A stretch of 64,000 nucleotides of DNA from Yuukianura sp. NJ FZ-2021 (GCA_046563655.1 CM102289.1:9920001-9984000); one strand, 5' to 3'; counted from the first letter of the stretch, positions 3,001 to 28,019 are shown. The notes: generated from the sequence alone by a model not told the origin. Program-made: numbers and translations.

Positions 3001-6000
3001 GATCAGTTGGTTCAACAATCCAACGCGGAGGAACTAATTTAAAGTAAAATCACAATTAGCATGTTTTCTTCACGTAGACGTTGGTAAATGTGGCTAAAAA
3101 GCGACAAGCACATGCGCACCACCATTAAGAAAGTACAGCACAGAAACTAAAAGTACAAATAGTAATTGTTAAATGAAAGTGAAATAATATTAAAAAGCAT
3201 AAAAGAGAATAAGAAGCATGGGAGGATTGGAGGGGAGACAGGAAAGGAAATGGATTTGTGACCCTAGTTACTCCCACCAAGTTAATTCGCAGCCTAACCA
3301 CCACCTCCAGGAATGTCCAGGAATAAGGGAATGAGGAACGTTAACGTTATTTGAGCTAACCTCATGCCCCTCCCACAACCGAATCCACCAATGACATCAA
3401 TCGCTGCTAAGCAATCACAAATCTATTCAAACCATCCACTTGAAGAAACGCTGAGGAGTTGGCCACTCCAGCCGAATTCCGAGCAGTGCAAGTGTACTCT
3501 TCCCAAAAAATCAAAGACAACTTCAAAATACTAAAATGTTCAACTTTTGTAAAATGTTTTGGAATTTGTTGAACTTTGAGCTCACCGCCCTGATTGGAGG
3601 GAGAGACTGGTTCTACAATGAGGACGTTGACACGGGCACCTAACGGAGCCGTTTTGAGACCGAGATGGGATCCCAGCGGACCGCCTTGGAAACTCCAGAA
3701 AATTTCCATCGGAAGGTCGCCTGATTTCAAATTTCGTTCAAACTTAAACTTCCCGCCAAAACTGAAACTTTACGTTTTGGACAAACCTTCGCTGACTAAG
3801 CATGTTGCTTGAGTCGTACTTCCAGCTAGGACAGGATCGAGTGTAAATGGGACAATGGTTGGAGGAACTGGAACAAAATCAAAAGCTTTCTCTCAAAATG
3901 TTGAAATTCTACGGTATCGGATCACAAATTTTCAGAAAAACTGGGTAGAATACAAAACTGAAAAAAATGAGCAGCACAGGCGAAGATGCTAAAAACTCCG
4001 AGGAACGAATACCTTGGACGACAAGATTGGCAGCAAATGTGCTGTTGCCTACTTTGTTTTTGGCTGTGCAAGTATATTTTCCACTGTGACTATGCTCCAT
4101 ATTTTCAATCATGAGGAGACTATTACGATCACCAACTTTCATTGTAGTTACTCCCTCCTGCTTCAATGTCGTTGCTTCTAAACTCTCGAAACTCCATTGA
4201 AATTGAAACGGCGGATCCCCCTCAGTCACAACACAGCCCACTTGAATCGAATTCCCAAAATGGTGAGCGTTTTCTCCGAAACTGAACGGCAGGATTTTGG
4301 GAGCGACTATTTCCAAATAATGTAAATCGTTAAATTCCGAAAATTCTTCACTAAAATTCTAAAATTCGAATTCTACTAAAAAAAATCACTTCTTTCGCTT
4401 CCTGTAAGGTTGGATAGGGAGAAAAACAGAAAAAATTAGCAAAGATTCGCAGATGCAAACGGCGCTAAAACTCCCAACAAAACTAAATACCTTGGACAAC
4501 AAGATTTGCCGCAAAAGTGGAGTTGCCTACTCTGTTTTTAACAGTACACGAATACTTTCCACTGTGGTTGTGCTCCATGTTCTCAATTGAAAGGAGACTC
4601 GTCCGATCTCCAATCTTCATCGTAGTTACTCCCTCCTGTTTGAGCGTCGTCGCCTCCAGACTCTCGAAGCTCCACTGAAAATGGAACGGTGGATCCCCCT
4701 CAGTCACGGTGCACATAACCTGGATTTGATTCCCAAATAGATGGTCGTTCTCTCCGAAGCTGAACGGCAGAATCTTTGGAGCAACTATTTCCAAATAACT
4801 TTAAATCATTAAAATCCTAAACATCCCAATTCCACTAACCAGTCACTTAAGTTCACTTCCTGTAAGGTAGCATAAGGAGAGAAAAAGCATATTAGCAAGG
4901 ATTCGCAGAGGCAAACGATGGCGAAATCCGAAGGACACAAATACCTTGGACAAGAAGATTGGCAGCATAAGTGCTGTTGCCTACTTTGTTTTTGGCCGTG
5001 CAACTGTACTTTCCACTGTGACTATGTTCCAAATTGTCAATCATCAAAACACTACTGCGATCTCCCACTTTCATCGTAGTTACTCCCTCCTGTTTCAACG
5101 TCGTTGCTTCCAAACTCTCAAAACTCCACTGAAATTGAAATGGCGGATCCCCCTCAATCACAACACAGCTCACTTGAATTGAATTCCCAAAATAACGAGT
5201 GCTGTCTCCGAAACTGAACGGCAGGATTATGGGAGCAACTATTTCAAAAAGTATTTTAAAGAAACTTGTTTCAAAAATTAACTTACTTTAACTAAACTTT
5301 TAACTTACTTTGGAAACTTTGTTTCAAAAATCAGAAAAACGAACTCCCTTTTTTGAAAACTTGGATTTTTTTTAAATATACAAGGAAACACGGATGACTT
5401 TAGAGTAGAAAAAAAAATTTTTAAGAAAAAACTTAAAGTGGTTCCGAAATAAAACAAAAGAGACCAGAAAGCTTGGCAGCGTGAAGCCCAGACGGGGAAC
5501 GGGAATGTCCCCGGAACGAAATACCTTGAACGATTAGATTTGCCGAGTAAGTGGTATTTCCCACCTTATTTTTGACCATACAAGTATATTTGCCAGTATG
5601 CGTATGTTCCACACTCTCAATAAACAAAAGACTACTTCTGTCTCCTGCTTTCATCGTAGTTACTCCCTCCTGTTTCGCAGTTGTCGCTTCCACACTTTCA
5701 AAGCTCCATTGAAATTGAAACGGCGGATCACCCTCCGACACGACACATTGGATTTGGACAGAATGCCCAAACTCATGTGCATTCTCACCGAAACTGAACG
5801 GCAGAATTCGGGGAGAAACTAAACAAAAAACCGGCAAAAATTACTACTTCGAATTTTGTCGGGAAAACGGGAATAGGAAAGTCATGAGGAAACTCCCGCC
5901 TTAAATTAAAGTAAAAACAAGTAGCAGCTTGCACGTCGTCAGCATGTTGAAATTAATTCCGAAGTTTACCGTGGACGACCAATTCAAAACTCTTGGAAGT

Positions 6001-9000
6001 ATTTCCCGCCTGATTACTAACTCCACAGGTATAATTGCCGGAATGAATAGAATCCACATCCTCTATAGTCAAAATGCTCGTCTTTTGTCCAAAGCGAGCC
6101 ACTTCCACACCTCTTTGGTTTGTCAAATTCTCATGTCCATGAAAAGTCCAGTGAATTGAGGTCAACGGAAGGTCACCATGCGTCACAACACAAGTGATCT
6201 GGACATGTTCTCCAGCGTACTTCGGACCATCGGATGTTTCAAGGGAAATTCTAGGAGGGACTGGCAAGCAATAAATCAAACCAGCAAATCAAAATTCCCG
6301 CACTTTTCAAAATTCATTCCCGACTTCGAAACCCTTTTTTTTGGGAGCTGAGCAAAAAGCACGCATGCCCTTTGACCTTAAATGGGAAATACCTATGACA
6401 ATTAGTTCTGCTGTGTGATTGGTTTGTCCAGCAGAGTTAGACACAATACAAGTATAATTTCCAGAGTGGATGTTGTGATTCAAACTGTCAATGGTGAGAA
6501 TACTTCTGCGTGGTCCGAATCTAGCAATTTCCACGCCCTGTTTGTGCAAATCTGCGCCGGGACCTTGCCAAGTCCACTGAATATTCAAAGGAGTGTCGCC
6601 CGTGGGGGCATAGCAAGTGACCTGCGCTTCTGTGCCCTCATGACTCGTTTCATCAAAGGAAAAAGGCTGAATAGTTGGAGGAACTAAGCCAAAATTTAAA
6701 AATAACAACATTCTTAAAATTAAAAAAAAATGCACCATTACTTAAAAACAGCCGCCATTCGCTATGATGCCAAAGTTAAAAATTAAAGGGATGGATACCG
6801 TTGACTATAAGATCGATGCTTTTGGAAGTATTGTTAGCAATGCTACATGAGTATGACCCAGTATGCTTCACATCCAGGTCACTGATTGTTAAAATGCTTG
6901 TTTTTGGTCCAAGTCGAGTGACCTGCACTCCCTCCTGCGTACTTGGATCCGCTCCATGAAAAGTCCACTGGAACGAAGCTCCAGGAGGCACGTCTCCCTG
7001 GGTGGAGCACATGAGCTGAACTTGGTCTCCAGCGAACTTCGGACCATCAAAGCTAAATTGTATTGCCAATTGCACAGGCACTAAACCCCATCATCAAAAA
7101 ATTCCACAAATCAATATTTCTCAAAATGGAAATTCACAAATTTTCTAAAAGTAAAAAAAAAGGTCAGAGGAATATTTAGGAGTTCGGAATGTATGCAGTA
7201 TAGATACTGGCAGCATTTAAAGCGTCAAGTGGACCACTTTTGTAACTGAAATACCCATGATTTGGTTTAAATGAGCCGTGTAATTGGCAGTTCCTGCTGC
7301 TGAACTCGCTTTGCAAGTATATGCTCCTAAGTGTTTAGTCGCAGTAACTTCAGAAATAGTCAAAGTACTTGTTCTAGGCCCCAGTTTGTAAATACTCACT
7401 CCATTTTGTCCAGCAGAGGAAGTCAACTCTGAACTCTGGTAACTCCAGTGGAACTGAATCGGCAGATCACCTCTATTGGCAGTGCACTGCAGATTGACCT
7501 GATCCCCTGACACGATCTCTCCAGGACCAAACTCAAACGGAACAATCTCTGGAGGAACTAAAGTCCAACATCCAAAAAATAAAATTTTCAACAACAGCTT
7601 CAAAATTTTGAAAACCCAAAATAGGGACATGGTTGGTAGGTGAAGGAGAAACGTAGAGCTAAGAAAAAAAAAGCAGGCGATTGGCTAAGAATTGGGCAAA
7701 ATGGACCAATATTGTCCAAGTACCCATGACTTCCTTGAGTTCTGCCGTAAAATTGGCAGTTCCAGCAGATGAAATTGCAGAGCAAGTGTAATTCCCTAGA
7801 TTGTGGACCGTGACTGCCTCAATGATGAGAACTGTAGTCCTTGGGCCTAACTTGGCAGTTCTCATGCCACTGTTGTTGATGTCACGCTCATTGTGTTGAG
7901 TGCTATGCGTCCACAGAATCTGCAGAGGAAGGTCTCCCACAGGAACATTACACTGCAGGGTCACATAAGACCCCTTCACAACTGTCCCATCAAACTGAAA
8001 CTCCGAAATTTCGGGCGGAACTGAACCCAAAAATTACCAAAATCAGCTAAAATTGCTTAAATGTATAATAAAATCAATTTTCAAACCTAAAAACAAGGGA
8101 ATGAGTAAGAGGGAAAGAGTTTAGAAATAGCAGATACAAAATATGGCAGTTGCAGATTGCAGATCAGCGTTTAATTTTTTTTGAAAGTGGTGCCTAACCC
8201 ATGACTTCCTTTAATTCTGCCGTGAAATTGGAAGATCCGGCGGGAGAACTAGCCTGACAAGTATAAGTTCCCACATGATTGGCAGAAACAGCCTCAATGA
8301 TGAGCATGCTTGACCTTGGCCCTACTTTGAGCGTTCTCATTCCCCCATGAGCCATGTCCGTTTGGTTACGTTTGGAACTGTGTGTCCACAGAATCTGAAG
8401 AGGCAAATCCCCCTGCACATTGCACTGCAGAGTGACATACGTTCCAGTCAACAGCCCCTCCTCAAATTGAAACTCAGAAATCAACGGGGGAACTAATCCA
8501 GAACAACCAAAATAGACGAAACTATAATTACAAATCTAGCAAAACTAAAAGAAAGTTCAGGAAAAAGGAATGTCAGCGAAATTTAGAGAAGCGTTTTGCG
8601 TTGTATGAGCTTCCTAAAAAAAAGGTTCCCTACCAGTTACATATTTCAACTCCGTCGTATAGTTAGCCGATAAGTTTGCTGGGCCTGACCTAGCCGTACA
8701 AGTATAAAATCCCACATGATGAGATCCAATTGCATCAATCATGAGCACACTGGCGCGATCCGACAGCTTCATCGTCCGAATTTCCCCCTTTTGTCCGCTA
8801 TTTCCCACCGACGCATTTGAATGGTGATGGTAACTCCAACTGATCGTCATTGGCAAATCCCCCTTAGCATTGCACTGCAAAGTCACTTGGTCACCCACAA
8901 CCAACGGCTCTTCAAAGGAAAACGGAGTAATGGAGGGAGGAACTACGCAAAAGAGCAGGAAAAAATGACAGAAAAAATGAAAACCGATGAACGTCCAATC

Positions 9001-12000
9001 TCTTCAGAAAAATTAGGAAATGCGGTTGCTCAGAAGCCAAAACGTGAAAAACTGCCGCCGTTTGCGAATTACCGAGCACAGTGAGTTGTGCACTGTGACT
9101 AGCATTTCCTGCCTTGTTGCTCACAAAGCAGTTGTAGGTCCCACTGTGGTGCAAATCCACTTCCTGAATTGTCAACATGCTCGTGGTTGGACCAAACTTG
9201 GAAATTTCAACGCCCTTCTGCTGATTCAAAGCGTCTTCGTGCCCTTGGAATGTCCAGGAAAAGGATTGGAACGGCAAATCACCTTGAGTGACCATACAAG
9301 CAAGTTGGGCAGAGTCACCAGGCTCCTTTGGTCCATCGAATGAAAAATTGGCAATACGAGGAGGGACTACAGGAAAAGAAGAGAACTGAAGCAACTAAAA
9401 AATACTGCCAAGTATTCCGCTGCTGGAAGCAAAGACTTTGGATGAACCTCGTCCTAAACACACCGTGAACCACAAGCTCAATGCTTTTGGACACATTTCC
9501 ACCATTGTGATTGGACAGAATGCAAGTGTAGAGTCCTGCGTGATTGGACTCCACTTCAGGAATAGCCAAAATGCTACTCTTTTGGCCAAATCTTGAAATT
9601 TGGATTCCTTGTTGTCCTGACACAGTGTCATGACCTTGAACTGTCCAATGGAATGACGACTGAGGTGACAAGTCACCTTGGGCCACGCACGAAATTTGGA
9701 CATAATCTCCCACAAACTTTGGTCCGTCCATAGTAAATTGCACAGTAATCTGAGCCGGAACTGACAACATCACAATATGAAATGTCGAAAAAAGAAAAGG
9801 GCGACAAAAAATTATGTCGCCAATCCACTCCTAGACTCCTAATCGCTAATTTTCCACTTTCAAATTACGTGATGACCTTAATATCAGGTCACCACTTTTC
9901 AGTTGTCGATGATTTTTCTAAATTCTTTGAAAAATTGATAAAAAAAAAATGAAAAGCTTGGACTTACCCATGACTTGTACTTCGAGAGTTCCTCTTGACG
10001 TGAATCCCTGTGGGTTTTTGGCTACGCAGACGTAGGTTCCTTGGTCCATGTTGCGTTGAACATTGTCCACCACGAGAGTTCCATTGGGAAATACACGTTG
10101 TCTCCTGTTGATCGGCAGAACTCGGTTGTCTTTTTCCCAAGTGACAGCCTCAATTGGATATCCAGCCACTGGACATGTCACTTCAAACGTATGTCCAGCC
10201 ACAACTTGGGCCTTTTCCATTGGTCGAATGTGAGGGCGTCCGTGGATGTTGAGTCGAGCCATGTGAGAAGCACTCCCAACTTTAGATACAGCAGTACATC
10301 TGCAAATAATTGCACCCATTTTAAAAATATTTCCAAGTATTTCAATTTAGATGCTGGAGAAACTAGTACAAAGTTTACTTGTAGAGTCCGCCATCATTGC
10401 TGTGCACATTCGTAATGTTCAGATGAGAAACCACTTCCCCGTTCGGATCAACATACTGAGCAACTTGAATTCTAAAATCCAAACAAGTATTAAAAAACTT
10501 TCTTTTTTGGAAAAAATTATTTAAAAAACTTTTGTTTTTCAAAAATGTTTTTTGAAGTTTACCGATCGGCGTTGACGACCTTCTTAGAATCCAATTCCCA
10601 GACAATTTCGGGTGACGGGTTGCCAGTAGCTTTGCATTTGAGAGAAACAGTGGGTCCAGGTTGCAGAATCTCTTCGCGGAATTTGAATGTCAGTTTAGGT
10701 GGATCAACTGTATCAAGGAAATCAGTTTTGTTAACATTCCAATCTTTAAAATGCATTTGAAGAATCTCACATCGGCCTCCAAGTTTGAGTTCGCCAGTGG
10801 CTTGTGCAGAGTCCTGGTCGTTCCGAACTGAAAAAAGTTCAAATTTAGCTCCAAAACAAAAAGAGAACGTTGGAAATCCTTACCGAAGCACTGGTACATT
10901 CCCTTATCCTCTCTGCAAATTAAAAAGGATTTCTCAGGAACACATTCTACTTTTAAGTTTTCACAAACACATTATTGCTAATTTGTGGAAGCCTCTTACC
11001 GCTTGACAGCATCAATTCGAAGTACAGATTCCGTGATTGGCAGTCTACGTCCATCCTTCATCCATGTAACGTTTTTAACCGGGGATCCCTACAAAAAAAA
11101 CGTTTTCTTTTTTAAATGATTTCACACTTAAGTGAAAAAAAGGATTAGTTGTTTATGTTACCTGATAATGACAAGTGAATGTTGCAGATCGTCCAAAATC
11201 AATCGTTTGAACTGCGGGCTCAACAGTGGCAGCCAACGGAGCTACACAAAAACAAGGAAATTTAAATTGTTATACTTGCAATTAGTTAATTAAATGTTAG
11301 TTAAATGAAATGGTCACTTGCCAGTGACAGTGAGGATGGTTTCTACAGATTCTGATCCGACAGAATTGGTGACAACACAAAGGTATTTCCCAGAATCGTT
11401 CACTCTCGCTTCTCTGATGATCAAAGTCCCACCGAGTTGCTTCACTCTTTCATCCAAAACCACCGCATCACGACTTCCACTTTCCGAAAACTTGTACCAC
11501 CTAAAACAAACATCAAAAGTCACAATCAATTGCTCTTTTCCTTCGTTTTGCAAATTGAGTTATGTAGGGGAGCAGAAAAAGCAAACCAAATGGAAACAAA
11601 ATGAGAACTGAAGTAAACTAAAAAGTTCCATTTTGAAAAACATAAAAGTATTTTCCGGAAATGCGGAGAAAGTGATTTTAAGAATTAACCGGATAGAAGT
11701 TGGTTTTGGGTTGGATTGGACTGGACACAGAGCTGCCATGCTTCCACCGCTAACTCCCTCGGGCGTTTCTAGAAATCTAACCTGGCTAGTTGGTTTCAAC
11801 GCCCCAGAAGGCTCTTTTCAAAATTTAAAAAATGCGTTTCCAAAATCAGTTATCGCTAGATAACCCAATAAAAACTAAATTCTAAAAATGATGCAGGAAA
11901 CCGGAAGTGATCAATATTCAGTAAATTTGAGCGATACAATGAAGGTAAGAGTTTTCAAAATTTCAGTTAATTCTCGAAATGTAAAAGTGAAAATTGTACT

Positions 12001-15000
12001 TTTCTGTTGGTTTATCGTAAGCTTGTGCTTCACAGAGCAAAGCCAAATCTTGTCCAGTGTCTCCCTTTATGCGTTGCCATCCATCACCATTCAATTTGGG
12101 ACCTGAGTGCCCCGTAGGTTCTGAACAAATCCCCAATTTCAACGTTTTAAATTTCGTTCAAATGAATTGAATGTTGGGGGGATAAGTTTTGCAACTTTCT
12201 TAATTTGTAAACCAAGCTCAATTTTGATGCCGTGCGTTTTAAAAAAATAACTTGTCCGACCTTTGAGTGGGAACGGGATATGCAAAGAATTCGCACATGA
12301 GGTTAACGTCCACTCCCACTTTCTCTACTTTCACCACAGTTGTGTCTTTGAGCGAAGCGTCACGCGGACTAGGACCAAGAGACACTTGCGGCTCTGGTCA
12401 ACAATTCAACAAAATTGAAATCACGCTTTTTAAATGTGAGCTTTCTTTAAAAACTGAATGTTGGGAAGCGTCAGCAATTGAATTTAAAAACCAAGTTATT
12501 ATAACGCACTTAAAAGCAGGAGGAGGACTGCCCTGTGCTTCACAACTCAACATGGTTTGTTCCATGGCGTTTCCTTGAACGTGATGTTTCGTAAGCTGCG
12601 GAATTTTTGGACTAACTCCCGCCAATGGTTCTAAAGTTAAATTGGAGTTTTGTTTTCAAAATTTGAAACTTAGAATTAACATTTATAGTTAGGAACGGAT
12701 AGTGAATTGCAAAATATGAAAAATGGGAACTTTTCTTTACATTGGATAAACATCCAAGCACTTACGATGTGCTTGGAGGTGGAACTCCACTAGATCTGCA
12801 CAATAACGCAACGGAATCTCCCTGTTGCTTTTTGAACGTCATGCTCTCATGTGCAGCTCCAAGAACAGGCTTAGTCCAACCATGCTTCGGATCTTCACAT
12901 TTAATTAATTCCGCAATTAGTTTTTTTTTTAAAAAGTTTTTGCAGCCCTTTTTTTCAAATTTAAAACTCAATTTTCAAATACAAAAAGTGAGGAGGCGGG
13001 AACTGAACTGTCAATTTGCAAAGTTTTTTTGACCGTACACTGTGCTTGGAGGTGGAACTCCACTTGATCTGCACAGAAAAGTGACAGATTCGCCCTGTTG
13101 CTTGGTAAATGCAGTGCTGTCATAGGATGACCCTAACACTGGCTTAGTCCAACCATGTTGTGGATCTACCAATTGTTACCCAAAAATCAAAAATTCTAAA
13201 ATTTTGGAAAACAAAATGCGGGAAGACGGGAATTGAACTTTGCCATATTTTCTAACCGGAATTTTGGTGGAGGTGTACTTTGTGCATCGCAGAGGAGAGA
13301 CACAGTTCCCTTGTCTGCCACTCCCACTCTCGCACCCAAGTAATTCGCATCTCTAATTTTGGGTGCTAAGGATTGGGATTCTAACACAACACGTTCAAAA
13401 TTTAAAATCTGCCTTCCATTGACTAAATTCTAAGCCGGAATGTTGGGAGTGACCAAGGAGTGTTGCAATGAACCATAAAATTAAAATTCTAACCGAAACG
13501 CTGGAGGTGGTGTACTTTGTGCATCACACAACAGAGCAACGATCCCTTTGCTATCCGAAGTTAACCGAATGATATTCTCATCTCTGATTTTAGGAGGAAG
13601 AGTAGGTGACTCTAAAGTTCAAAATTCCAAAAATACAACTAACACAAATTTCCGTTTCTGAAAACTTTCAGACTGAAACCTGAATGTTGGGATCTTAAAA
13701 TGGCAGGAATTGTTAAAAACTGAGATTTTTAATTTTTGTACCGAAAATTTGGTGGCGGCGTAGACTGAGCATCACAAAGTAGTGAAACCGACTCTTTGAT
13801 GTGAAACGTCTTTTTAGTACTCACGACATCTCCATCCCTAATTTTTGGCGCCAAGGACTGAGCCTCTGGTATTTAAAAAAAAACCTTTAAATTTTTAAAT
13901 TTTAAAGAAAAATCCTTCGAAAAAAGAAATGATGGGAAACGGAAGGTGACATTTTGACAAATAATTTTCTGGAAAATAAAAAATTGCCCACCGAAATTTG
14001 GGAGGAGGAGTTGATTGTGCGTCGCATAGCAACGCTACAGTTTCGCCATGAGGCAACATCCGTTTTGAACCAATTATACTTTCTCCGTCACGGATTTTCG
14101 GTGCCAAAGATTGGGCTTCTAAATTCCACAAATCCCAAAACAATTTTACTTAATCCGGCCTTATTAGCAAAAAAAAAATGAAACTAAGAACGCAGAATAT
14201 TGGGGAGGCGGGAAGTTTTTCAAAAAGTAAAAAACGAACCGGAAGTTTGGCGGTGGTGTTGATTGGGCATCACACAAAAGTGCAACTGTTTCTCCATTTG
14301 GACAAAACTTCCTAGTCCCTATGCTCTCTCCGTCTCGAATTTTTGGGGATAGCGACTGAGCCTCTATATACAATTTCAAAAACTTCAAAAACTTCTTTCA
14401 AAAAATTCAAAATCACTGAACTGCTAGGAGCGGGAAGCTGATTGTTTTTAAAAGTTTGTAAAATGGCAAACCGGAAGTTGGGTGGTGGAGTTGCCTGAGC
14501 GTCACACAAAAGAGCCAATGTTTCCCCAATTGGCAGCGATTTCCTCAGCATCTCTATGTTTTCACCATCACGGATTTTGGGCCCCAGCGATTGAGCCTCT
14601 GTCAAATTCAGCGATTTAAAACTTTCAGCGTCAAACGAACCAAATAATGTTAGGGACGGGAATGAAAAGCCAAAAAACCGAGTTCCGAAAAATTGAAATC
14701 CGTAAAAGACAATTTAAAAAAGAAGGAAATTCCTATTTTTGAAAACATTGCCAGACCTGAAAGATGGAGTGGGATGGCCTTGTACTGAACACAAAGCAGA
14801 CAGACTTTCACCCACTTTCCCCTCACGCGTCTCTACAATTTTGGCAGAAAACTTTGGACCAACATGCCCACGCGGTTCTACACAAACGATAAAGACAGCC
14901 CAGCGTATGAAACACCCATTTTCAAAATTTTCAAAATGTTTAGGAGGCGGGAAGCTGATTGCAATAAAAGGAAACTACTACCTGACTCTTGGTAATTCAA

Positions 15001-18000
15001 ATCCCTGTGCTGGACAAAGTACTGCGAGGTCACTTCCTTGCAAATACTTGTAGGACTGTGACCCTGAGCTTGAAGAAAACTTTGGAGCAATTCGTCCAAC
15101 AGGTTCTTCAACAAAAAACAAAAACCTCAACTTTAAGTTCCAAAAACTACAACTTTCCATTGAAATACGAATATTGGGAGACTGGACAGACTGGTGAAAG
15201 TATTTTTAAAAAGCGAATCTTAACATTTTTTGGAAATCGTGAATCTGACCTTGTGTTTGGAACTTCGTGACCTTGTGAATTGCACAAGAGAGAAAGTCCA
15301 TTTCCCTGCGCATGCGTGAATGACCCCTGAATTCCGCCTGAACTAGTCGCAAACCGTGGACCAATACCCCCAATTGGCTCTGTTCCAAGCACCAAATTTA
15401 CAAATTTAAAAATTCCTCATCAAAAATTTAAAAAAAATGTCGGGAGAGGGGCAGCAAAATGCAAGAAATTAAGACATTTTAAAAACATGAACCGCTCATA
15501 CTTGTAAGTTCCAACAGGAAATGCTTGTGCTTCACACAAAAGTGCTCCTGAATCTCCGCTTCCATAAGCAACTGTTGGACGCAGAAGGAGCGGAATCTTT
15601 GGTCCTACGCTTGCCACCGGTTCTAAACAACCAATCAACTCAAATTCAAAAATCAAAACAATCTCAACTGAAACTTAACATCTGCGTGTTGGGAAAGTGG
15701 AGTGACAGCAAATTGGAAAAAGTTGAGCCCAAGTGACCTGAGGTCACTGACCTCCTGTCCTTACGTTGTGACTGGTGGTGGAAATGAGGAAGATGCTGGA
15801 CAAAGAAGTGCAAATGAAGATGCCTTTTCCTTAATGAACGCCTGAACATGCGACTGCGTAGAACTCTGCGGTCTCGAATGTCCTGCTGGCTCTAATTTAC
15901 CAATTCAATCACTCAATTTCAACCTTAAACCGCAAAAAATTGCAAAAAACCTAGCCGAAAATTCTTAAAAACCGAAATATTGGGTGGGAAAGTCATTTTG
16001 CAAATCATGAAAAAAAAAAACGGAAAAAGTGACAAAAATGTGTTTTTTGAGCCACTTTTGCTTACTTATACTTTGGAGGTTCAAATCCAGTTGCAGTGCA
16101 TGACATAGAGATTCCCGTGCCCGCCTCTCTTACGAATGTCAACGTTCTTTGCTCAGAGGGGAAACTCGGTTTCATGTGAACATTGTTCGGTTCTAGGCAA
16201 ATTCCAAAACACTCTCAAGTATTTCCTAACTGTCCGAGAGACGGCGTGACAACAATCTTCCTACGCGCATGCGCTAATTCGGAGTGCAAGCAAAACAAGA
16301 TGAAAGTTGGGGATGAGGTCAAAGGTCAAAGAGAATGACTGGGTCAACTCACGCTGTTTTTGGAACAGGAAATGCGGATGTTTGGCAAAACAAAGTATGG
16401 CCTGTTCCGGAAGAAGTTTCCACTGAACGACTCTTCTCGTTCCCAAGCGTAAATCTCGGAGGCACAACACCCACCGGATCTTACAAAGTTCACATATGAT
16501 TCAGCATCTTAATTTTTTAACTCTCAAGTTTACCAATGGTAAAATTTAAACATGATAAATTACCGTTAACTGTTTAACTTTTACAAATTTTCATGTTTCA
16601 TTTTTAAAAATTTAAGCCGGCAGTTTACTCTGTCAGCACTGTGGAAATTAACGGGAAGCGGTTTGGTTTTCCAGATTTAAAATCAAAACTAAGAGCGGGA
16701 AAGTGGAAATTAAAACTAAAAAGTAGGCTAATTTAAGTAAAAACTAACCTAGTGATTGGAACTGGAAATGCGGAAGCGGCAGGACAAACGAGTGGAACAG
16801 ATTCCGATTCAACACCTCCAACCAATTTTAACTTTTCAGAAATAGCAACAGAAGGAGCCACGCTGCTCACAGGTTCTGATAAAACCAAACCAATTATGAC
16901 GCTAACTTGGAAGTTTCTTAAACCACTTGCAAAATGTTCAATTTTACTTTAAGTTTTTTGCAAACAGTGGGTGATATGAACTTGATTAGAAAATTGCAAA
17001 TCACTTCCCGTCTCCCAACATTCAGGTTTGGATTGCAAATGGCTTTTCAACTCATCATCATTCCATTTACGTTAACACTCAAGTTACTTTATCACAATTT
17101 TCAACGTTTTCCATAAAAATTTGACAGAGTTGGCCAATTTGCAATCTCTGAGAAAATACAATCAAATTCCAACACAATCCGTTTTCCAAAATTTCAACAG
17201 TTCATCTTGAATTTTACATAACATCTCCAAAATTGTGTCGAAAATTATTAGAATGAGAAATCGTGTTGTTTTTTGACATATATTTTCTCAAAAAAATATT
17301 TTCTAAGAAAAAACATAGCTTCAGCTTACCTGTTACGACCAATTTTCCGGCAGTTGCAGACAATCGAGTTTCACCAGTAAGTCGATGCTTGGTTTGACAT
17401 CTAAAAAAAACACCAAAAAATTTCTTTTACAAACTTGTCTAAAATCTTTTAAAAATCCAAATTTATTGCCCACTAATTACCTGTATTCTTTCAACCCATC
17501 TTCCGGCCGTACATCTTTGATGTGCAATTCTCCCGACGGCAACACAACAAATTTACCATCTTAAAAACCACAAACACAACGTCAACATCCAAACTTCATT
17601 TTAAAATTAGAAATAGAATTGTAAGAACAATCGGACATGGCGGGTGCACGGGTTAATATTAGGTCAATTTACATTTTACTTTTTAACTTTATTTTTACAA
17701 AAATCCGGGTTTTATTGTTCAAAGGCGGAACTGACTCTTTTGCGAATGCGGAAATCTTTTTATTTAAAACTAACCATTGATTTTGGCTACATCTCTGGGA
17801 TAGACGTTTTCGTCACTGTCTTGCCATGAAAGGATTTCCAAAAATTCTGCAATGTAAGATCCCATCTTACACTTCATCACAGCAGCATTCGCACTTTACA
17901 GTCAAAACAAACAATTTCAACGTGTGATCTCTTTAGTTTCACTTTTTAAATTTCAACCTGGACTTAAGATCTCATACCTGATGACATATTCGTTCTCAGC

Positions 18001-21000
18001 ATGAGTGTCGTAGACTTGCGATACGACTGAAATCAAAACCAATTCAAAAATTACAACTCTAAAAAGTGCTAATTTTGTAAACCCTGCTCAATTTTTAGCT
18101 CCTAAATCTTAGTCCTAACAATAACCTTGACCTGCCATGTCCTATCTTTCTTTTTAGTTTTCCTAAACGCACCAAATTGTTCAGAATTTGAAGGTGTGAA
18201 AACGTCTCCAGTGGAAGTTCGCCATTCAGTGATGGTCATGTACTCGGTGGAAAAGGAAACAGAACACGTGAAAATTATGTTGTTCCCTCTACACAAATCA
18301 ACAAAACCTATCCATTTCAACATTTCACTTTTCAAAATTTCAACTTTTTTTAAAAATCCGAACCTAATGACTTGTTTGTTATGAACTTCAACAAGAACGT
18401 GTTGCGGAATCACTAGGAATTAAACAAATTAGAAACAAAAATTACAAATGGCAAAATTTTCTTCAAAAATTTAAATCTAAAACCTGAGAGTGAGCTTAAA
18501 ATTATTGCCGCGATTCCAAAATAGTCGTATGTGTGAATTGTGAAATCAAAGTTTGTCTATGATTTTACATTTCGTTAGACACGTTGTTCTATTTTGAATT
18601 TTTAAACTTTCTAAAAGTAAGGCCCGGCCCACCATGTCCTATTGCCACTTTTTCTAAAATTTAAAACAGACCGTATTCTTTTGAACTCTCAGGAGAGTAA
18701 ATTTCACCGGTCGTAGTTCGCCACTCCGTTACGTACAAATATTCAGTGGAAAATGAAACCGAGCACACAAAAATTATGTTATTCCCCCTAAAATCCAAAT
18801 TCAAAATTTTATAAAAGTAATTCCTATTTTAGCAAATCCTTAGAAACTGATACCTTATGACTTGCTTATCATGAACTTGCACCAGAAGATGTTGTGGAAT
18901 CACTAAAAATTTAATTTCAAACTTTAAAAAAAAAATGAAATTTTATTTTAAAGTATCGCTTTTGCTTCTACCCTGCACCCGCCAGACGATTGTCTTCTGA
19001 AAAATAATTTCTAACCGAGCTTTTGAGATTCTACTGCATAAGAATCTCCATCTGAATCCTTCCAGGAAACAATGCTAAAGTAATCACTGCCAAACGGAAT
19101 GTAGCATCTCAGGATTCCGTAGTTCAGAACATACACATGATCATTCTGAACTTCAACAACGTAATCTTGATTTACAACTAAAAAGTCAAAAAGTCAAAAC
19201 TCAAAATTTCACTTTTCAATTTCGAAATTTTAGCATTTCGTTCCCCTTGCAACCTGCGCATGTCCGCTTATCCCTTCAATTTTTGCCAAAATGTTACCAT
19301 ATTGCTCATTTCGAGAAATTGGAACATCCGCTTGAAACCATTTTTCAATTTCAATAAAGTCAGCCACATACGACGGACTACATTTCAAAACGCATTCAAA
19401 AATTTCAAAATTTTCCAAAAACCTACAAAAATTACAAAATTTGAAATCTGTACAACTTTGATTGAATTTTACCTGACACATTTAAAGACAGCAGCATTCC
19501 GTGCAATGACTTGTTGTCGGAAAATGTCAACTTCATAGCCTTGTGACACAACTGCAAATATTTGTAGCTTTTAACTTTTGTAGCTTTTGTAATTTTACAA
19601 TTTTATAACCCGGTCAAATGAAAACAAAACTCTACCTAAAAATTAACCCTTGCACTTTTTCCCACGTCCGAGATGTTCTTTTTCCAACTTTTTACCGTAA
19701 ATGTCATTTCTCGGAATAGGAACATCCCCTTGAAACCATTTGTCAATGTCAACGAAATCAGTCACATACGATGGACTAGCACAAAGTGATCATTTTTAAA
19801 TCTCAAAAAATATCTCACTTTTCCCTAGGATGTCAACTGGTGGCCGAATTTACCTCAAGCATTTGAAAATGGCAGCGTTCCGTGAAATGACCTGTTGCCG
19901 CACAATGTCAACCTCATACGACTGTGCCACCACTGCAAAAATTATGCCCAACTTTTCATTAAAATCTAAAATTTAATCCCAATTGTCGCTTTCTCCGCAG
20001 GATATTAACGAGAATTAGCAAATTGTCTAACTTAACCAATGCACCCGTACGAGAACAAAAATCTCGCAGCCATGTTCGCTTTTCCGTCAATTTAAAATTT
20101 AAAATTCATAAAGTTACCGTAATTTTCATTTTTCTGAATGGGAACATCCCCTTGAAACCATTTCTCTACCCCAACAAAGTCAACCACAAACGACGGACTG
20201 AAGTGGATTAATTAAATATAATAGTTAATTAAATTAAGTTTAAAAATTAATGTTCCCGCTTTCCTAAATTACTTGAATTACCTCTGGCACTTAAACACTG
20301 CTGCGTTGTTTGCAATTACTTGTTGTTTCATCACATCAACATCATACATCTGAGACACAACTGAAACCATTCCCAAAATTCACCATTTTCAAAAACAATT
20401 TCAGAACAAAATTTGAAAAGAGCAGAATTCACTTTCAAAATTGACCCGGGACGCAACAAAAATCTGTAAAATTTGAGCACTTCTTTTACGCCTACCTCAT
20501 CCATGTCCGATTTTTTTCTCTTTTTTTTAAAGTGAAGTAAAAGTGTACCGTAGTTTTGTTGTTGTTTTATGGGATTGTCTCCGTGAAACCAAGAATCAAC
20601 GTGAATGAAATCACTCACATACGAAGGACTAACAAACAACACCAATATTTACTCAACGAATCACCGATTACTCCACACCTCAAACATTAGTTTTTAAGTT
20701 CCCCAATTACCTGATACACTTGAAAATGGCAGCGTTATGTTTGATTATGTCTTCATCGTACACTTTGTTTGCATAACTCTGATACACCACTTCAAACAAA
20801 AACCAAACATGAAAATTTCAATTAAAGTTATAACCTATTCGACTAGGAAGTGAAAATCAATGCCATTTGAGCAATGGGTGTCACTTTTTTCCGTTTAAAT
20901 TGTGCTAAATACCGTACACCCGCAGCCTTTAAAGTCCGAGTGCCCTCAAAAAATCGTTTATAATTTTTTTTTTACCAAAGTTGTCATTTCTTGTGATTTT

Positions 21001-23132
21001 TCCATCGTCCACTAACCAATCCTCCACACGCACAAAGTCAGTCACAAACGGGGGACTCAAAGAACATGTAAAAATTCCATGATTCTGAATAATCACATGC
21101 TGCTTCAGCACATCCACTTCGTAGTACTGCGTAATCACTTTAAAAAACGTTTAACAAACGTTACAGAAATACATAAATTTAAAAAGTATGAAACATTGTA
21201 AACTACGGGTGACAATGTAGAGCATTGACCTAACTCTGACCCTGTCTCCTGCCTATGTCCGAATTGTCTCTTTTTAAAACTTGTAACTAATTGTACCGTA
21301 GTTATCATTTTGGCCTCTTTTAATTGAGACATCATCTTGAAACCAACTGTCCACTTCCAGGAAGTCGATTACAAAAGCAGGCGTAAACAAGCACTTGAAA
21401 ATGGCATTGTTCTTAAAAATGACGTCCTCCTCAAACACTTTGGCAGCGTAGTGCTGGTTCACAACTGAAAACCAGGTCCAAAAAATACAGCATTCCCTTC
21501 GCTAATGCTTACTTGTCAGAAATTTTCAGAGAATTTTAAAATTTAAAAACTGAGCCAAATATTGTCCCAAGTACACCAGCGATGTCGACGTCCCTGTAAG
21601 TCCGATTGACCTACCGTACTTGTCGTTTGGCTCCACCGGAGTGTCATCAAGCATCCAACTGCTCACAACGACTGACCCTGACACTATTGCTGGGATGTTG
21701 CACTTTGTAATTTGGTTATTCCCAGTAATCACAAAGTCATCCATCACATTCGCTGCATACGGTTGACTAACGACTATTAAGTTAGGAACATTAATCCCCA
21801 GTCTCAATTTCACATGTCGCCATCTTACTATTTTTTTTAAATAACTCCCTCTGCTCAGCTTCGCGCTTTTTTTAAAAGAAAAATGGAAAAAGTGTGGGCT
21901 TACCTGCTCTGACGTGGACATCGCGAGAGTTGATGGTTCCAACTGAGTTTCGAGCCAAGCAAATGTACGTCTGCGCGTGAACTTCTTGTCGGTAGTCCTC
22001 GGCTCGGAAAGGCGGAAAAACCAAAGCTCCAGACGCCAAAACCTGCAAAAACAAATTCAAATCAAATCATGATGACAAATGAAAAGCATTTCAGCACACT
22101 CCATCAACAATTTAAAAAATTAGGCTATTTTTTGTCAAGTTAGAAACAAACAGAGGGCCAGTTCCATGCTTTTTTTGTCTAACTTTTTCCATCTGATGAG
22201 GCAGATGCTTGGGATGCAGCCAGACCGAGATCATATGGACCAAACAAGGCAGATGTTGGATGAACCAACTGTGGATTTGAAAGTTTCAGGATTTTCAGAG
22301 GATTAGAAAGTGTTTCTGACCTGTCTTAGTCCAGGAACATCTCCGATGGCAGTCCCGTCACCCCGAAGCCAAATGATTTCCGGTTGAGGATTTCCTCTTG
22401 CTTGGCAAGGAATCTCAGCTCCAGTTGAATTGGAGAAATCCATCTTGGATTGCGGTTCCCGAACAAATACCGGTCCAGTTTCTTCGTCAGAAGTTCCAGT
22501 TCCAGGAGAATTGGCATGACCTGGGAATCAACAAAAACCGAAAAACTGTTATCATTAAAATATTCTGAACAACTTTACATAAAAAAACTTATCACTAGAG
22601 ATTCATTGTCATAAGAAAGTGTAATCCACCGAGAAAGGAGAGGAGGGGCTTTAAATCTTAAAGAGTTTTCCTTTTTCGTTGGGTTTCCTGCCGAACAAAA
22701 AAAGTGCCGTGCTCCGTTTAAGGGGCACGTGAGAGCCCTTGGAGCTCCACATGCCCTTCATCATTGATCCAACATCTGCTTCTCCGTAGCCATTGTTACA
22801 ACAATGCAGTGTGGCCCTGAGCAAATGTCACAATGATGAAGGGCTCTCCCATCGTCCCTTGGCCTTATATGGTGCTTCTACTTGGGCATTTCATGGTGTC
22901 TTGCTGGATTATGCTGGATGGAAGCTGGATATTGATGGTCTCTGGACTCTGGCTACTAATAAACTAATGACACTGATTCAACTACTATCAACTAATTGAA
23001 ATTGAAGGACAGTTAACCTTTAGAAAAAGTTTAGTTTAGATTTAACTTTAGCAACTTGTTGGACTTACCGAAGTCGACGCCCGCAGTTAGCACGATGACC
23101 AACAACACCGGAAGAAACTCCTTCCAGTACAT
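1..23132 (-). CDS. Dscam1: Hypervariable Dscam1 (Down syndrome cell adhesion molecule), multi-exon; the 3' part (rest of Ig10, FN5-6, TM, cytoplasmic tail) runs off the left edge of the window
   Basis: ATG at 23132 (MYWKEFLPVLLVIVLTAGVDF signal peptide, exon 23132-23069). Ig1 exons 22520-22321 (GPVFVREPQSKMDFSNSTGAEIPCQARGNPQPEIIW) and 22042-21904 (LVFPPFRAEDYRQEVHAQTYICLARN), a diagnostic Dscam sequence. Constitutive exons 17559-17481 and 17400-17330 (DGKFVVLPSGELHI...CQTKHRLTGETRLSAT), 11500-9968 (Ig3 C-half to Ig6) and 3033-1 (VPPRWIVEPTD Ig8, Ig9, FN1-4, VPAKIASF start of Ig10). Splice sites and phases were consistent wherever checked. Confidence 0.98.
2061..2111 (+). repeat. Intronic 10-bp tandem repeat (~5 copies of TTGGAAATAC-like unit)
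   Basis: ctggaaatac ttccgaatac ttggaaatac ttgcaagtac ttgggaatac, inside a Dscam intron. Confidence 0.75.
3391..3420 (-). promoter_or_regulatory. Candidate Dscam exon-9 cluster downstream docking site
   Basis: Transcript-sense sequence is TTGTGATTGCTTAGCAGCGATTGATGTCAT, just after variant 9.14. Partial complements lie about 30-55 nt downstream of most variants (5471-5481, 8155-8169, 7672-7684, 9024-9037, 4436-4447, 4892-4903). Confidence 0.7.
3433..9760 (-). CDS. Dscam1: Dscam Ig7 mutually exclusive exon array ('exon 9' cluster), 14 variants, the last one in three pieces
   Basis: Whole-Ig exons (VPP/VAP start, C..GD.P...W, YxC; 282-309 nt, phase 1-1): 9760-9464, 9366-9073, 8942-8634, 8492-8199, 8020-7724, 7557-7255, 7080-6799, 6683-6393, 6260-5970, 5818-5525, 5238-4945, 4784-4491, 4306-4013. 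Variant 9.14 = 3867-3787 + 3720-3586 + 3498-3433. Confidence 0.95.
11690..16875 (-). CDS. Dscam1: Dscam Ig3 N-half mutually exclusive exon array ('exon 6' cluster), 20 variants
   Basis: Exons (AG/GT flanked, 118-133 nt, phase 1 to 2, (E/D)xxxxxP...C....P pattern): 16875-16749, 16479-16353, 16192-16066, 15891-15765, 15622-15502, 15379-15250, 15105-14982, 14877-14757, 14598-14472, 14363-14240, 14118-13992, 13865-13742, 13611-13494, 13380-13257, 13165-13039, 12892-12766, 12630-12510, 12393-12261, 12120-12000, 11813-11690. Confidence 0.95.
17001..17053 (-). promoter_or_regulatory. Dscam exon-6 cluster docking site (upstream, in the intron after constitutive exon 5)
   Basis: Transcript-sense sequence is TTGAAAAgccatttgcaatccaaaCCTGAATGTTGGGAGACGGGAAGTGA. 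The CCTGAATGTTGGGA core is the conserved insect Dscam1 exon-6 docking core. Complementary selectors precede the variants, e.g. a 17-nt perfect complement at 13676-13692. Confidence 0.92.
17624..17668 (-). promoter_or_regulatory. Dscam exon-4 cluster downstream docking site
   Basis: Transcript-sense sequence is ATTGACCTAATATTAACCCGTGCACCCGCCATGTCCGATTGTTCT. Complementary segments lie just downstream of each of variants 4.1-4.10 (e.g. 18970-18996, 19642-19679, 18623-18644, 20501-20512). Confidence 0.85.
17775..21773 (-). CDS. Dscam1: Dscam Ig2 N-half mutually exclusive exon array ('exon 4' cluster), 11 variants, 7 of them split into two half-exons
   Basis: Intact variants: 4.1 21773-21615, 4.2 21464-21297, 4.3 21137-20976, 4.8 19177-19016. 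Split variants: 4.4 20789-20711+20628-20549; 4.5 20360-20282+20197-20118; 4.6 19932-19854+19775-19696; 4.7 19551-19473+19377-19298; 4.9 18902-18854+18787-18672; 4.10 18412-18364+18288-18173; 4.11 18026-17978+17893-17775. All begin V(V/I)xQ, contain the Ig Cys and Trp, total 159-168 nt and run phase 1 to phase 1. Confidence 0.95.
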
Positions 23133-26192: not shown

Positions 26193-28019
26193 ATGGACAA
26201 AATTTACTCAGTCTTCGTTTTGCTGATCTCCGTCATTGCGTCAAGTGCTGAATCGATGGAACTCATTCAAGTTCAAATTGTAACTTCAAATGAATTTTGA
26301 CAATGAAAAGTGAGAATTTCATAAAATTTTGATTTCTTGCTTTTCCAGCTCTCTCGTCATGGTTTGCGATCCCCCGAATTTCCATTTCCAACTGACGCAT
26401 ACGCAGATCAGCCAAAATACTGGCCAAATGGGTGGGGTCAGCTACTGGAGGTCAGGATTTTCAAACTTGTTTAAAAAAAAAAAAAAAATTTTTTTTTGAG
26501 TTTTTATGTTTCACAGTTAGGAAAGCAGCAGGAATTTGAACTTGGGCGGTTCATTCGAAGGCGTTATGGGAACTTTCTCTCTGGGAATTTGTGGAGCAAG
26601 GAGACTTTTGCGATGAGTTCGGATTATGACAGGACGATTCAAAGCGCACAATTGGTTTTAGCTGGACTGTACGACAAAGGAAATGGAGTCGACATTGATT
26701 CATTTGTGCCCGTCCACTCGATTCCAAAAGAAGCCGACAGAGTATAAACTAAACAAATATTTATTTTAGTTTTTACAAAAGCAATCTCCCATGTCCAGAT
26801 GAACAAGCTTCCAGTTTGAGTACAAAAAGCTTCCCGATCCAGCACAAAAAGCTTCCAGCTCATAATTTTTGTTTTCATACTGAATAGATGATCAACCCAA
26901 ATCCAAATTGCCCTCGACGCAAACAGTTGTACGACGAATTTAAAAATTCAGCAGAAGTTAAGCAGCATTACGAAAAATATGAAGTGATGTTTGAGTCAAT
27001 TCTACAAAAAATGGGCTACAGGTCGAACGAAACCATGAAAATGTACCACGGGATTGGAGCGCTCATGATCCAAGTTAGTCATCTCCAAGAAAACTGAAAT
27101 TTCAATTTCCTTTTCACAAGTTCTTTTTCAGGATCCGTTTACAGAAGCTTTTAAGTCCATCTAATGAAATTTCCGATTGAATTTTTCACTTTTCAGAGAA
27201 TCTGCAACCTAACTATTCCTGCCTGGGCCGAGGATTTGCTCGACTCGGATGACTTTATGCGGATTATTTCCCAGGCATTTCGGTTTCTAACGGGGACGGA
27301 TGACCTGAAAAGACTCACGACTGGACCACTCCTGTCCTACATCGTGGACGGAATGAAAAGGACGGTGGACGGAATGGACAGGATGGACGGAAGGACGGAG
27401 GACAGGAAGCTGTACCTGTACTTGGGCCATGACATCACAGTGGCCAATATGATCAATACTCTCAGCACTTTTGACATTTGGCCCACTTTCTCCGCCACTC
27501 TCTTCTTTGAACTTCTGAGGAACACGACAACAAAAGAAAACTTCATCCGAGTAATAACCGTTTTTCAAATTGATCATTTTTTATTGGTCGGACAGATTTT
27601 TTGTGCACGCTGATTGGTCGATTTGAACTTTGGTTAGGTTTTGTACAAAAATGAAACAACTTCTGAGGAACTAAGAGAGCTCAACCTGCTCAAGTGCTCA
27701 TCTCCTTGCACTTTGGAAAAATTTACTTCCGGCTACCAACAATTTCTGCCGACTTCTGCCGAACTCGATGTCGAATGCAGTCTGGATCAAACTAAACTCT
27801 CCACTCTAGGTATCACAAAACTTGTTTATAGCTAGGTTACTTTTGTTCAAAATTTTGAAAACAAAAAAAAGAGTTGTCTTTTTAGAAAAGTATTAAGTTT
27901 TTTGAATTTCAGATGCAGTGTTGATTGGAGTCGTCGTTGGACTCGTGGTGGTTCTACTTGGATTCATTTTCTTCACGATTCGTCGAAAACCGAAACGAGC
28001 CTATGAAATTAACGCCTAA
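26193..28019 (+). CDS. Histidine acid phosphatase (lysosomal/prostatic acid phosphatase-like), signal peptide plus C-terminal TM, multi-exon
   Basis: MDKIYSVFVLLISVIASSAES signal. RHGLRSP catalytic motif (exon from 26349), GWGQL, SSDYDRTIQSAQLVLAGLY and GHD motifs. Last exon AVLIGVVVGLVVVLLGFIFFTIRRK...*. Confidence 0.93.

Follow-up and report, generated by a model that had tools for sequence, protein, structure and literature searches.

How does a Dscam1 gene pick one variant from a cluster of alternative exons when most of those variants are themselves interrupted by an intron? The question is raised by a 64,000-nt stretch of DNA from Yuukianura sp. NJ FZ-2021 (GCA_046563655.1 CM102289.1:9920001-9984000), referred to here as the window, with positions counted from its first letter. 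The minus strand of the window carries a hypervariable Dscam1 gene, and between its constant exons 3 and 5 lie 11 variants of exon 4, which encodes the N-terminal half of the second immunoglobulin domain (Ig2). Four of the variants (4.1, 4.2, 4.3 and 4.8) are single exons. The other seven each consist of two exons around a GT-AG intron, and so depart from the one-exon-per-variant organization of Dscam1 exon 4 arrays. The answer that we consider likely is that this is an ordinary docking-selector array in which introns were gained, in this lineage, at two positions, and that each pair of half-exons is spliced cognately, as a unit.

A tblastn search with a mayfly Dscam1 isoform finds colinear exons on the minus strand from 22497 down to 8. 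The peptide encoded by exon 3 has 416 protein matches, the closest of which, at 96% amino acid identity, is a gene model of the springtail Allacma fusca (P0005); none of the matches is 100% identical. Judged by these best matches, the DNA most likely comes from a springtail. Nearly all of the best 120 of these 416 matches are hexapod Dscam1/Dscam2-like isoforms or Ig-domain proteins, and a few are nameless. Together, the exon 3 matches and the colinear exons identify the gene as an orthologue of Dscam1.

The 11 variants are homologous to one another, lie in tandem on the minus strand, measure 159-168 nt once spliced, and are in phase 1 at both ends. Joining exon 3, a variant and exon 5 gives an open reading frame for all 11. 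The split variants form two groups. In group A (4.4-4.7), every variant is divided into 79 + 80 nt; in group B, 4.9 and 4.10 are divided into 49 + 116 nt and 4.11 into 49 + 119 nt. All seven internal introns (82, 84, 78, 95, 66, 75 and 84 nt in 4.4, 4.5, 4.6, 4.7, 4.9, 4.10 and 4.11, respectively) are GT-AG introns in phase 2. In group A, the intron follows the B-strand cysteine by two residues. In group B, it separates the A' strand from the B strand and interrupts the codon just before the G-N ahead of the B strand. When the spliced peptides of the split variants are aligned to 20 unsplit homologues (11 variants from a contig of a related springtail, L001, and 9 from the Allacma gene model), the junction codon aligns without a gap. 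A preliminary description of this DNA had proposed these coordinates and splits, with phase 2 inside the variants and phase 1 outside, and every boundary was recovered when re-derived from the sequence. The exons and internal introns, with the basis for each, are as follows.

22042-21904, minus strand: constant exon 3 of Dscam1, with the last part of Ig1 and the first part of Ig2, ending in phase 1; 96% amino acid identity to P0005
21773-21615, minus strand: Ig2 variant 4.1, unsplit, 159 nt; frame and alignment
21464-21297, minus strand: Ig2 variant 4.2, unsplit, 168 nt; frame and alignment
21137-20976, minus strand: Ig2 variant 4.3, unsplit, 162 nt; AGT CCC where group A variants have their intron
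20789-20711, minus strand: 4.4a, 5' half of 4.4, 79 nt; splice sites and frame
20710-20629, minus strand: internal intron of 4.4, 82 nt, GT-AG, phase 2; no selector
20628-20549, minus strand: 4.4b, 3' half of 4.4, 80 nt; splice sites and frame
20360-20282, minus strand: 4.5a, 79 nt; splice sites and frame
20281-20198, minus strand: internal intron of 4.5, 84 nt, AT-rich; no selector
20197-20118, minus strand: 4.5b, 80 nt; splice sites and frame
19932-19854, minus strand: 4.6a, 79 nt; splice sites and frame
19853-19776, minus strand: internal intron of 4.6, 78 nt; no selector
19775-19696, minus strand: 4.6b, 80 nt; splice sites and frame
19551-19473, minus strand: 4.7a, 79 nt; splice sites and frame
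19472-19378, minus strand: internal intron of 4.7, 95 nt; no selector
19377-19298, minus strand: 4.7b, 80 nt; splice sites and frame
19177-19016, minus strand: Ig2 variant 4.8, unsplit, 162 nt; frame
18902-18854, minus strand: 4.9a, 49 nt; splice sites and frame
18853-18788, minus strand: internal intron of 4.9, 66 nt; no selector
18787-18672, minus strand: 4.9b, 116 nt; splice sites and frame
18412-18364, minus strand: 4.10a, 49 nt; splice sites and frame
18363-18289, minus strand: internal intron of 4.10, 75 nt, whose retention would keep the frame open; no selector
18288-18173, minus strand: 4.10b, 116 nt; splice sites and frame
18026-17978, minus strand: 4.11a, 49 nt; splice sites and frame
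17977-17894, minus strand: internal intron of 4.11, 84 nt; no selector
17893-17775, minus strand: 4.11b, 119 nt; splice sites and frame
17559-17481, minus strand: Dscam1 constant exon 5, starting in phase 1; frame and tblastn

Are the split variants coding sequence that is still in use? Seven pairs of split paralogues were compared, six in group A plus 4.9/4.10. The ratio of nonsynonymous to synonymous change (dN/dS) over the whole variant is 0.09-0.43, and both halves contribute to it. The proportion of synonymous differences (pS) is 0.56-0.73, near saturation, versus a proportion of nonsynonymous differences (pN) of 0.14-0.35. Between the members of these pairs, identity of the internal introns is 0.48-0.55, compared with a mean of 0.52 and a maximum of 0.62 for shuffled sequence (200 shuffles). 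With synonymous change near saturation and introns at the random level, the duplications must be old, and both halves have since been retained as coding sequence. Across these old duplicates, splice sites, half lengths and phases are conserved in all seven split units, and the 3' halves of group A are 61-80% identical to one another at the nucleotide level. These patterns argue strongly that the split variants are real coding exons under purifying selection in both halves.

Reading frame places some limits on how the halves may be used. A product with only one half of a split variant reaches a stop codon in 14 of 14 cases, in keeping with the earlier claim that use of a single half shifts the frame. 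Retention of the internal intron also leads to a stop in six of the seven variants, the exception being 4.10. A retained 4.10 intron (18289-18363, minus strand; 75 nt) would add 25 residues with no truncation. By contrast with single halves, every forward join of a 5' half to a 3' half is open (28 of 28). Ten of these joins are within group A and six within group B, as the preliminary description had counted; it had overlooked the remaining 12, in which the 5' half comes from group A and the 3' half from group B, and which would encode a segment of 65-66 residues with two B strands. Hence, its proposal that frame acts as a built-in quality check stands for single halves and fails for cross-group chimeras. 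Since these 12 malformed joins are in frame, frame is no filter against them, and fidelity must come from the pairing of splice sites. For the same reason, free joining of halves would be costly.

What, then, marks a variant for selection? A block in the intron between 4.11 and exon 5 has the properties of a docking site. Duplexes computed against the entire last intron were long, loop-ridden structures that are hard to interpret, and a 36-nt core was used instead. This core is complementary to a site 0-31 nt past the donor of each whole variant from 4.1 to 4.10, with duplex free energies (dG) of -32 to -42 kcal/mol. Thus, a predicted selector accompanies each of the 10 variants that are followed by another variant. 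The docking site and the predicted selectors are listed below, with the number of 200 shuffled sequences that reach the same dG (kcal/mol).

17656-17621, minus strand: docking site, 36-nt core, in the intron between 4.11 and exon 5; conserved in L001, pairs with 10 selectors
21565-21614, minus strand: selector after 4.1; dG -32.7; 0/200 shuffles
21238-21273, minus strand: selector after 4.2; dG -33.2; 0/200 shuffles
20911-20949, minus strand: selector after 4.3; dG -41.8; 0/200 shuffles
20488-20521, minus strand: selector after 4.4b; dG -32.2; 1/200 shuffles
20031-20086, minus strand: selector after 4.5b; dG -34.7; 0/200 shuffles
19642-19681, minus strand: selector after 4.6b; dG -42.3; 0/200 shuffles
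19243-19276, minus strand: selector after 4.7b; dG -38.3; 0/200 shuffles
18969-18997, minus strand: selector after 4.8; dG -41.2; 0/200 shuffles
18622-18651, minus strand: selector after 4.9b; dG -36.9; 0/200 shuffles
18121-18153, minus strand: selector after 4.10b; dG -32.6; 0/200 shuffles

When 12,791 windows along the minus strand of the 64-kb sequence were scanned, the 18 most stable duplexes with the docking core were all at selectors. The internal introns are different: none of the seven has a selector, and their pairing with the core reaches only -8 to -17 kcal/mol. For six introns, that pairing is matched by 146-199 of 200 shuffles; for the AT-rich intron of 4.5 (dG -15.7), 2 of 200 shuffles reach the value. 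As predicted from these pairings, the docking-selector layout is one that treats each a+b pair as a single unit, marking only the donor of the 3' half.

The layout is also found in the related springtail contig, where 33 of 34 bases of the docking core are identical (L001, 5852-5885) and form the sole conserved block in an otherwise diverged intron. Predicted selectors follow all 10 of the L001 variants that have a variant after them, and none of 100 shuffles reaches the value of any of them. In the collections of genome contigs and viral contigs, a 30-base docking core has no exact match. The intron that separates exon 3 from 4.1 was considered as the location of another docking site, upstream of the array, and rejected: it has no block conserved with L001 (the best local match is 8 bases), and 73 of 200 shuffles equal its pairing with the core. 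No pairing of that intron with the docking core rises above shuffled sequence, pairing with other introns not having been searched. Docking sites downstream of the exon 4 cluster have been described for Drosophila and Coleoptera, and docking on both sides of the cluster for Hymenoptera, with docking sequences that are specific to clades (PMC8042237, in the portion of the text available). The selectors seen here are unusually clear for an exon 4 cluster, a pairing that is disputed in Drosophila.

The internal introns resemble the constitutive introns of the gene. Twelve constitutive junctions were tried; of the nine introns resolved, eight are 71-91 nt and one is 278 nt. At 66-95 nt, the internal introns belong to this size class, whereas the introns between variants are longer (113-259 nt). 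The mean donor match to a 9-base consensus is 6.6 for internal introns (n=7), 6.6 for constitutive introns (n=10) and 5.1 for the regulated outer donors (n=11). Internal-intron folding is not unusual, with z-scores of -1.3 to +1.9 versus -1.5 to 0.0 in eight constitutive introns.

These features can be brought together in one mechanism. Small spliceosomal introns would have been gained inside variable exons at position A (4.4-4.7) and at position B (4.9-4.11), giving rise to seven functional two-exon variable units. The selector just past the 3' half of a unit would pair with the docking site before exon 5 and so select the a+b pair as a whole. The short internal intron would be removed constitutively by intron definition, with proximal sites joined first, once the partner half has been transcribed. 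Each 5' half would then be joined to its own 3' half, and the regulated step of variant choice would be unchanged. Non-cognate joins would be occasional errors rather than the purpose of the arrangement. To make a chimera of the 5' half of one unit and the 3' half of a later one, exon 3 would have to take the upstream unit, and the 5' half of that unit would have to skip its own close, strong partner. Double inclusion is rare in ordinary arrays, and chimera formation is the same kind of error.

Were the introns gained in this lineage? The closest available comparison is L001, a 10.8-kb metagenome contig with exon 2, exon 3, 11 Ig2 variants and exon 5, the first two of which encode peptides 95% and 91% identical to Allacma P0005, respectively. 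All 11 of its variants are single, uninterrupted exons with AG before and GT after them, which bears out the earlier assumption that single-exon variants are the usual state. A second metagenome match (L002; 1 kb, exon 2 only) was left out of the comparisons, and a search with P0005 found no relative in the genome contig collection. P0005 itself is a gene model, so intron positions cannot be read from the protein. It strings nine alternative Ig2 variants together in series over 680 residues, an annotation artefact; such serial-variant models are to be expected from any unsupervised annotation of these arrays. Insect and crustacean Dscam exon 4 variants are treated as single exons in the literature, as far as the available text goes. 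Given these single exons and the unsplit state of L001, gain in the lineage of the window is the simpler reading, and the internal introns were probably gained lineage-specifically.

The Ig2 array also seems to have diverged in sequence. Two motifs, V/I-I-R/K-G-N before the B strand and I-P-x-F-V-x-D-F after the cysteine, are invariant in all 20 variants of L001 and Allacma. Most variants in the window (17775-21773, minus strand) have lost them. Relative to an Allacma-like lineage, therefore, the Ig2 array appears to be evolving faster here.

The history of individual introns is less simple. A tree of 31 variants was built from 55 columns, with 16 of its 28 inner forks unresolved. For 4.4-4.7, a single intron gain at position A followed by tandem duplication is probable. 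In the unsplit 4.3 (20976-21137, minus strand), the sequence AGT CCC stands exactly where group A has AG, the intron and T CC, as expected both of a site that never received the intron and of one from which it was precisely lost. The 4.10 and 4.11 introns share a 22-nt block located 20-21 nt from the donor (18323-18344 and 17937-17957, both minus strand). A search of both strands of the window, allowing up to two errors, gives no further copy of the block. These two introns are 0.64 identical overall, above all 200 shuffled pairs (maximum 0.62), with flanking exon halves that are only 0.49-0.53 identical; the shared block and the identity are a hint that the two have a common origin. The block could reflect such an origin or be a functional intron element. 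Repeat copies of the internal introns were sought in the 64-kb window and rejected, as blastn with the seven introns yields only AT-rich matches of 25 nt or less.

Several points weigh against an array of cognately spliced units with introns gained in this lineage. We infer internal splicing, cognate fidelity and mutual exclusivity alike from genomic sequence. That sequence contains no bar to the splicing of a 5' half onto a later 3' half, and the 16 joins possible within groups are all open. Nor is any feature seen that would dictate which 5' half is taken, as the predicted selector sets only which 3' half meets exon 5. The selectors have their own weaknesses: the shuffles used to assess them preserved mononucleotide content only, the weaker ones (about -32 to -33 kcal/mol) are equalled by unrelated sites near 36820, 53835, 32300, 16150 and 3390, and docking-selector control of exon 4 is disputed in Drosophila (PMC6379703, from partial text). 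The direction of change, gain and not loss, depends on one related contig and on the textbook state of insects and crustaceans. Finally, two placements in the tree are awkward. The position B intron is present in two different old orthologue groups, since 4.9 and 4.10 cluster with 4.8 and the two relatives' variant 4 (support 94/92), and 4.11 groups with L001 variants 7-10 and Allacma variants 7-8 (93/89). In addition, the unsplit 4.3 falls inside group A, with 4.5-4.7 (83/95). Given these placements, a single gain at each position does not suffice, and an additional loss or gain, or a transfer, is needed.

The split has a bearing on the two variable surfaces of Ig2. In array-4 exons, epitope I has been defined as the 10 residues between conserved Q4 and V15, and epitope II as the 13 residues following W40 (PMC3236188, seen in part). 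Aligned to these boundaries, the epitope I stretch lies within the 5' half and the epitope II stretch within the 3' half in groups A and B alike, so the preliminary description was right that the split parts one from the other, and exchange of halves would make structural sense. Homophilic epitope I is carried by the 5' half alone. Chimeras of halves would therefore add sequence variants and, we infer, yield no new epitope I segments.

Could the halves nevertheless be shuffled, with a 5' half joining its own or any later 3' half of its group to make a sizeable, used product? If so, up to 20 Ig2 sequences would be available instead of 11, the homophilic epitope I and the outward-facing epitope II would assort independently, and a second combinatorial layer, at the level of splicing, would exist inside a single Dscam1 cluster. 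The open frame of all 16 within-group joins allows for this, as does a predicted selector that fixes the 3' half and leaves the 5' half free. Group A 3' halves are alike enough (61-80%) that within-group chimeras would probably fold, and the split falls between the two epitope segments of PMC3236188 (as given in its accessible part). The lengths of 79 + 80 and 49 + 116 nt, exact across old duplicates, would suit interchangeable parts, yet constraint from the Ig fold explains the conserved lengths and phases equally well. The alternation of a and b halves, the short introns and the strong internal donors all favor the nearest partner, and the internal introns have no selector, conserved element or unusual fold that might override this preference. 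The malformed cross-group joins, in frame like the others, are a further difficulty, and each chimera would be an event of the double-inclusion type, which is rare in ordinary arrays. We regard shuffling on any such scale as unlikely. A still more remote idea is that the split variants are dead or dying pseudo-exons disabled by insertions, leaving only 4.1-4.3 and 4.8 in use. The loss from several variants of motifs that are invariant in the relatives (V-I-R-G-N and I-P-x-F-V-x-D-F) can be read as relaxed constraint, but the loss also extends to the unsplit 4.1-4.3 and 4.8. The low dN/dS, with near-saturated synonymous change in both halves next to introns at the random level, is not what decay would leave. 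Nor are the intact GT-AG sites, phases and lengths of all seven units, each of which has kept a strong predicted selector where it needs one. This explanation is so poorly compatible with the evidence that we give it almost no weight.

The origin of the introns also has competing explanations. They may be ancestral to springtails, or older, having been lost in the related lineage and from 4.1-4.3 and 4.8. The occurrence of position B in both 4.9/4.10 and 4.11, which belong to different old orthologue groups, would follow directly. So would the grouping of unsplit 4.3 with 4.5-4.7 and the AGT CCC at its homologous site, as a precise loss would leave. However, many independent precise losses would be required, all 11 L001 variants are unsplit, the insect and crustacean arrays are treated as single-exon arrays in the literature as far as available, and the supporting tree is the short one described above, with more than half of its inner forks unresolved. 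An ancestral origin is thus improbable, to about the same degree as shuffling. Alternatively, the introns may be copies of a mobile, introner-like element that generates introns, which would explain repeated gains within one array. The 22-nt block at the same donor offset in the 4.10 and 4.11 introns, with no other copy in the window, is what such copies might share, and the identity of these two introns exceeds that of every shuffled pair. Against this, the blastn comparison of all seven introns with the window gave nothing beyond short AT-rich matches, and similarity among the group A introns does not exceed that of shuffled sequence. We consider an introner-like source very unlikely, less so than pseudo-exons.

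How does the array, read as a set of cognately spliced units, compare with known systems? The insect and crustacean Dscam1 (Dscam-hv) exon 4 array belongs to the same gene and likewise lies between exon 3 and exon 5. As in the exon 4 layout of PMC8042237 (available text), a single docking site follows the last variant, and each of the others is followed by a selector. The array in the window differs in that 7 of its 11 variants are divided into two exons by a phase-2 intron, at one of two positions, and in having a docking sequence specific to its own clade. The array nearest to it is that of L001, which likewise has 11 variants with selectors and, together with Allacma P0005, has exons 2, 3 and 5 close to those of the window; the L001 variants differ in being single exons throughout. 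Duplicated two-exon units used in a mutually exclusive manner are known from vertebrate GNAO, where exons 7.1-8.1 alternate with 7.2-8.2 (PMC5896119, from partial text). There, too, the alternative unit is an exon pair with an intron between, and homologous pairs lie in tandem. On the same partial reading of the source, GNAO has only two pairs, which are the last exons of the gene and are not mixed with single-exon variants, its intron predates the duplication, and no docking-selector array is involved.

Chelicerate sDscam is another Dscam-family locus with tandem variable units, some of which are said to contain more than one exon. The repertoire of that locus is widened by chimeric transcripts, in which trans-splicing links a variable cassette with constant exons that belong to a different cluster, and a role for docking-selector pairing has been proposed (PMC9258826, in the part of the article available). 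Unlike the variants described here, the sDscam cassettes are 5'-terminal, with alternative promoters deciding between them, and the chimeras described do not combine two halves of one Ig-coding variant, as half-exon joins would. For Folsomia, the accessible text of PMC5490193 mentions only a Dscam2 palindrome, and the words Collembola, springtail, Folsomia and split are all absent from PMC12962786. Full-text searches of the literature turned up neither intron-split variable exons in Dscam nor Dscam1 arrays from springtails, with supplements and several key older papers lying outside that scope. The intron-split architecture of Dscam exon 4 is thus apparently undescribed.

What are the implications of such an arrangement? 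Models of Dscam1 variant choice take every option in a cluster to be a lone exon that has one acceptor and a single regulated donor. In this array, an extra donor and acceptor, strong and constitutive-looking, are present in 7 of the 11 choices, and the docking-selector layout is kept, making the array a natural test of fidelity. If only cognate pairs are used, then short-intron definition and the order of transcription suffice to hold a two-exon unit intact. If non-cognate pairs are used, the array would represent a new way of multiplying receptor diversity. The array would also be a clean case of intron gain within tandemly duplicated alternative exons, and the presence of the same intron position in two orthologue groups bears on how introns arise and spread.

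The remainder of the window contains two further Dscam1 clusters, both on the minus strand and both judged by eye from a list of open reading frames (ORFs) together with tblastn. The exon 6 (Ig3) cluster, at about 11560-17000, has roughly 20 variants, and the exon 9 (Ig7) cluster, at about 3900-9830, has 13-14. On the plus strand, downstream of the Dscam1 5' region, ORFs at about 26400-27800 resemble exons of what we take, from the ORF list only, to be a histidine acid phosphatase-type gene.

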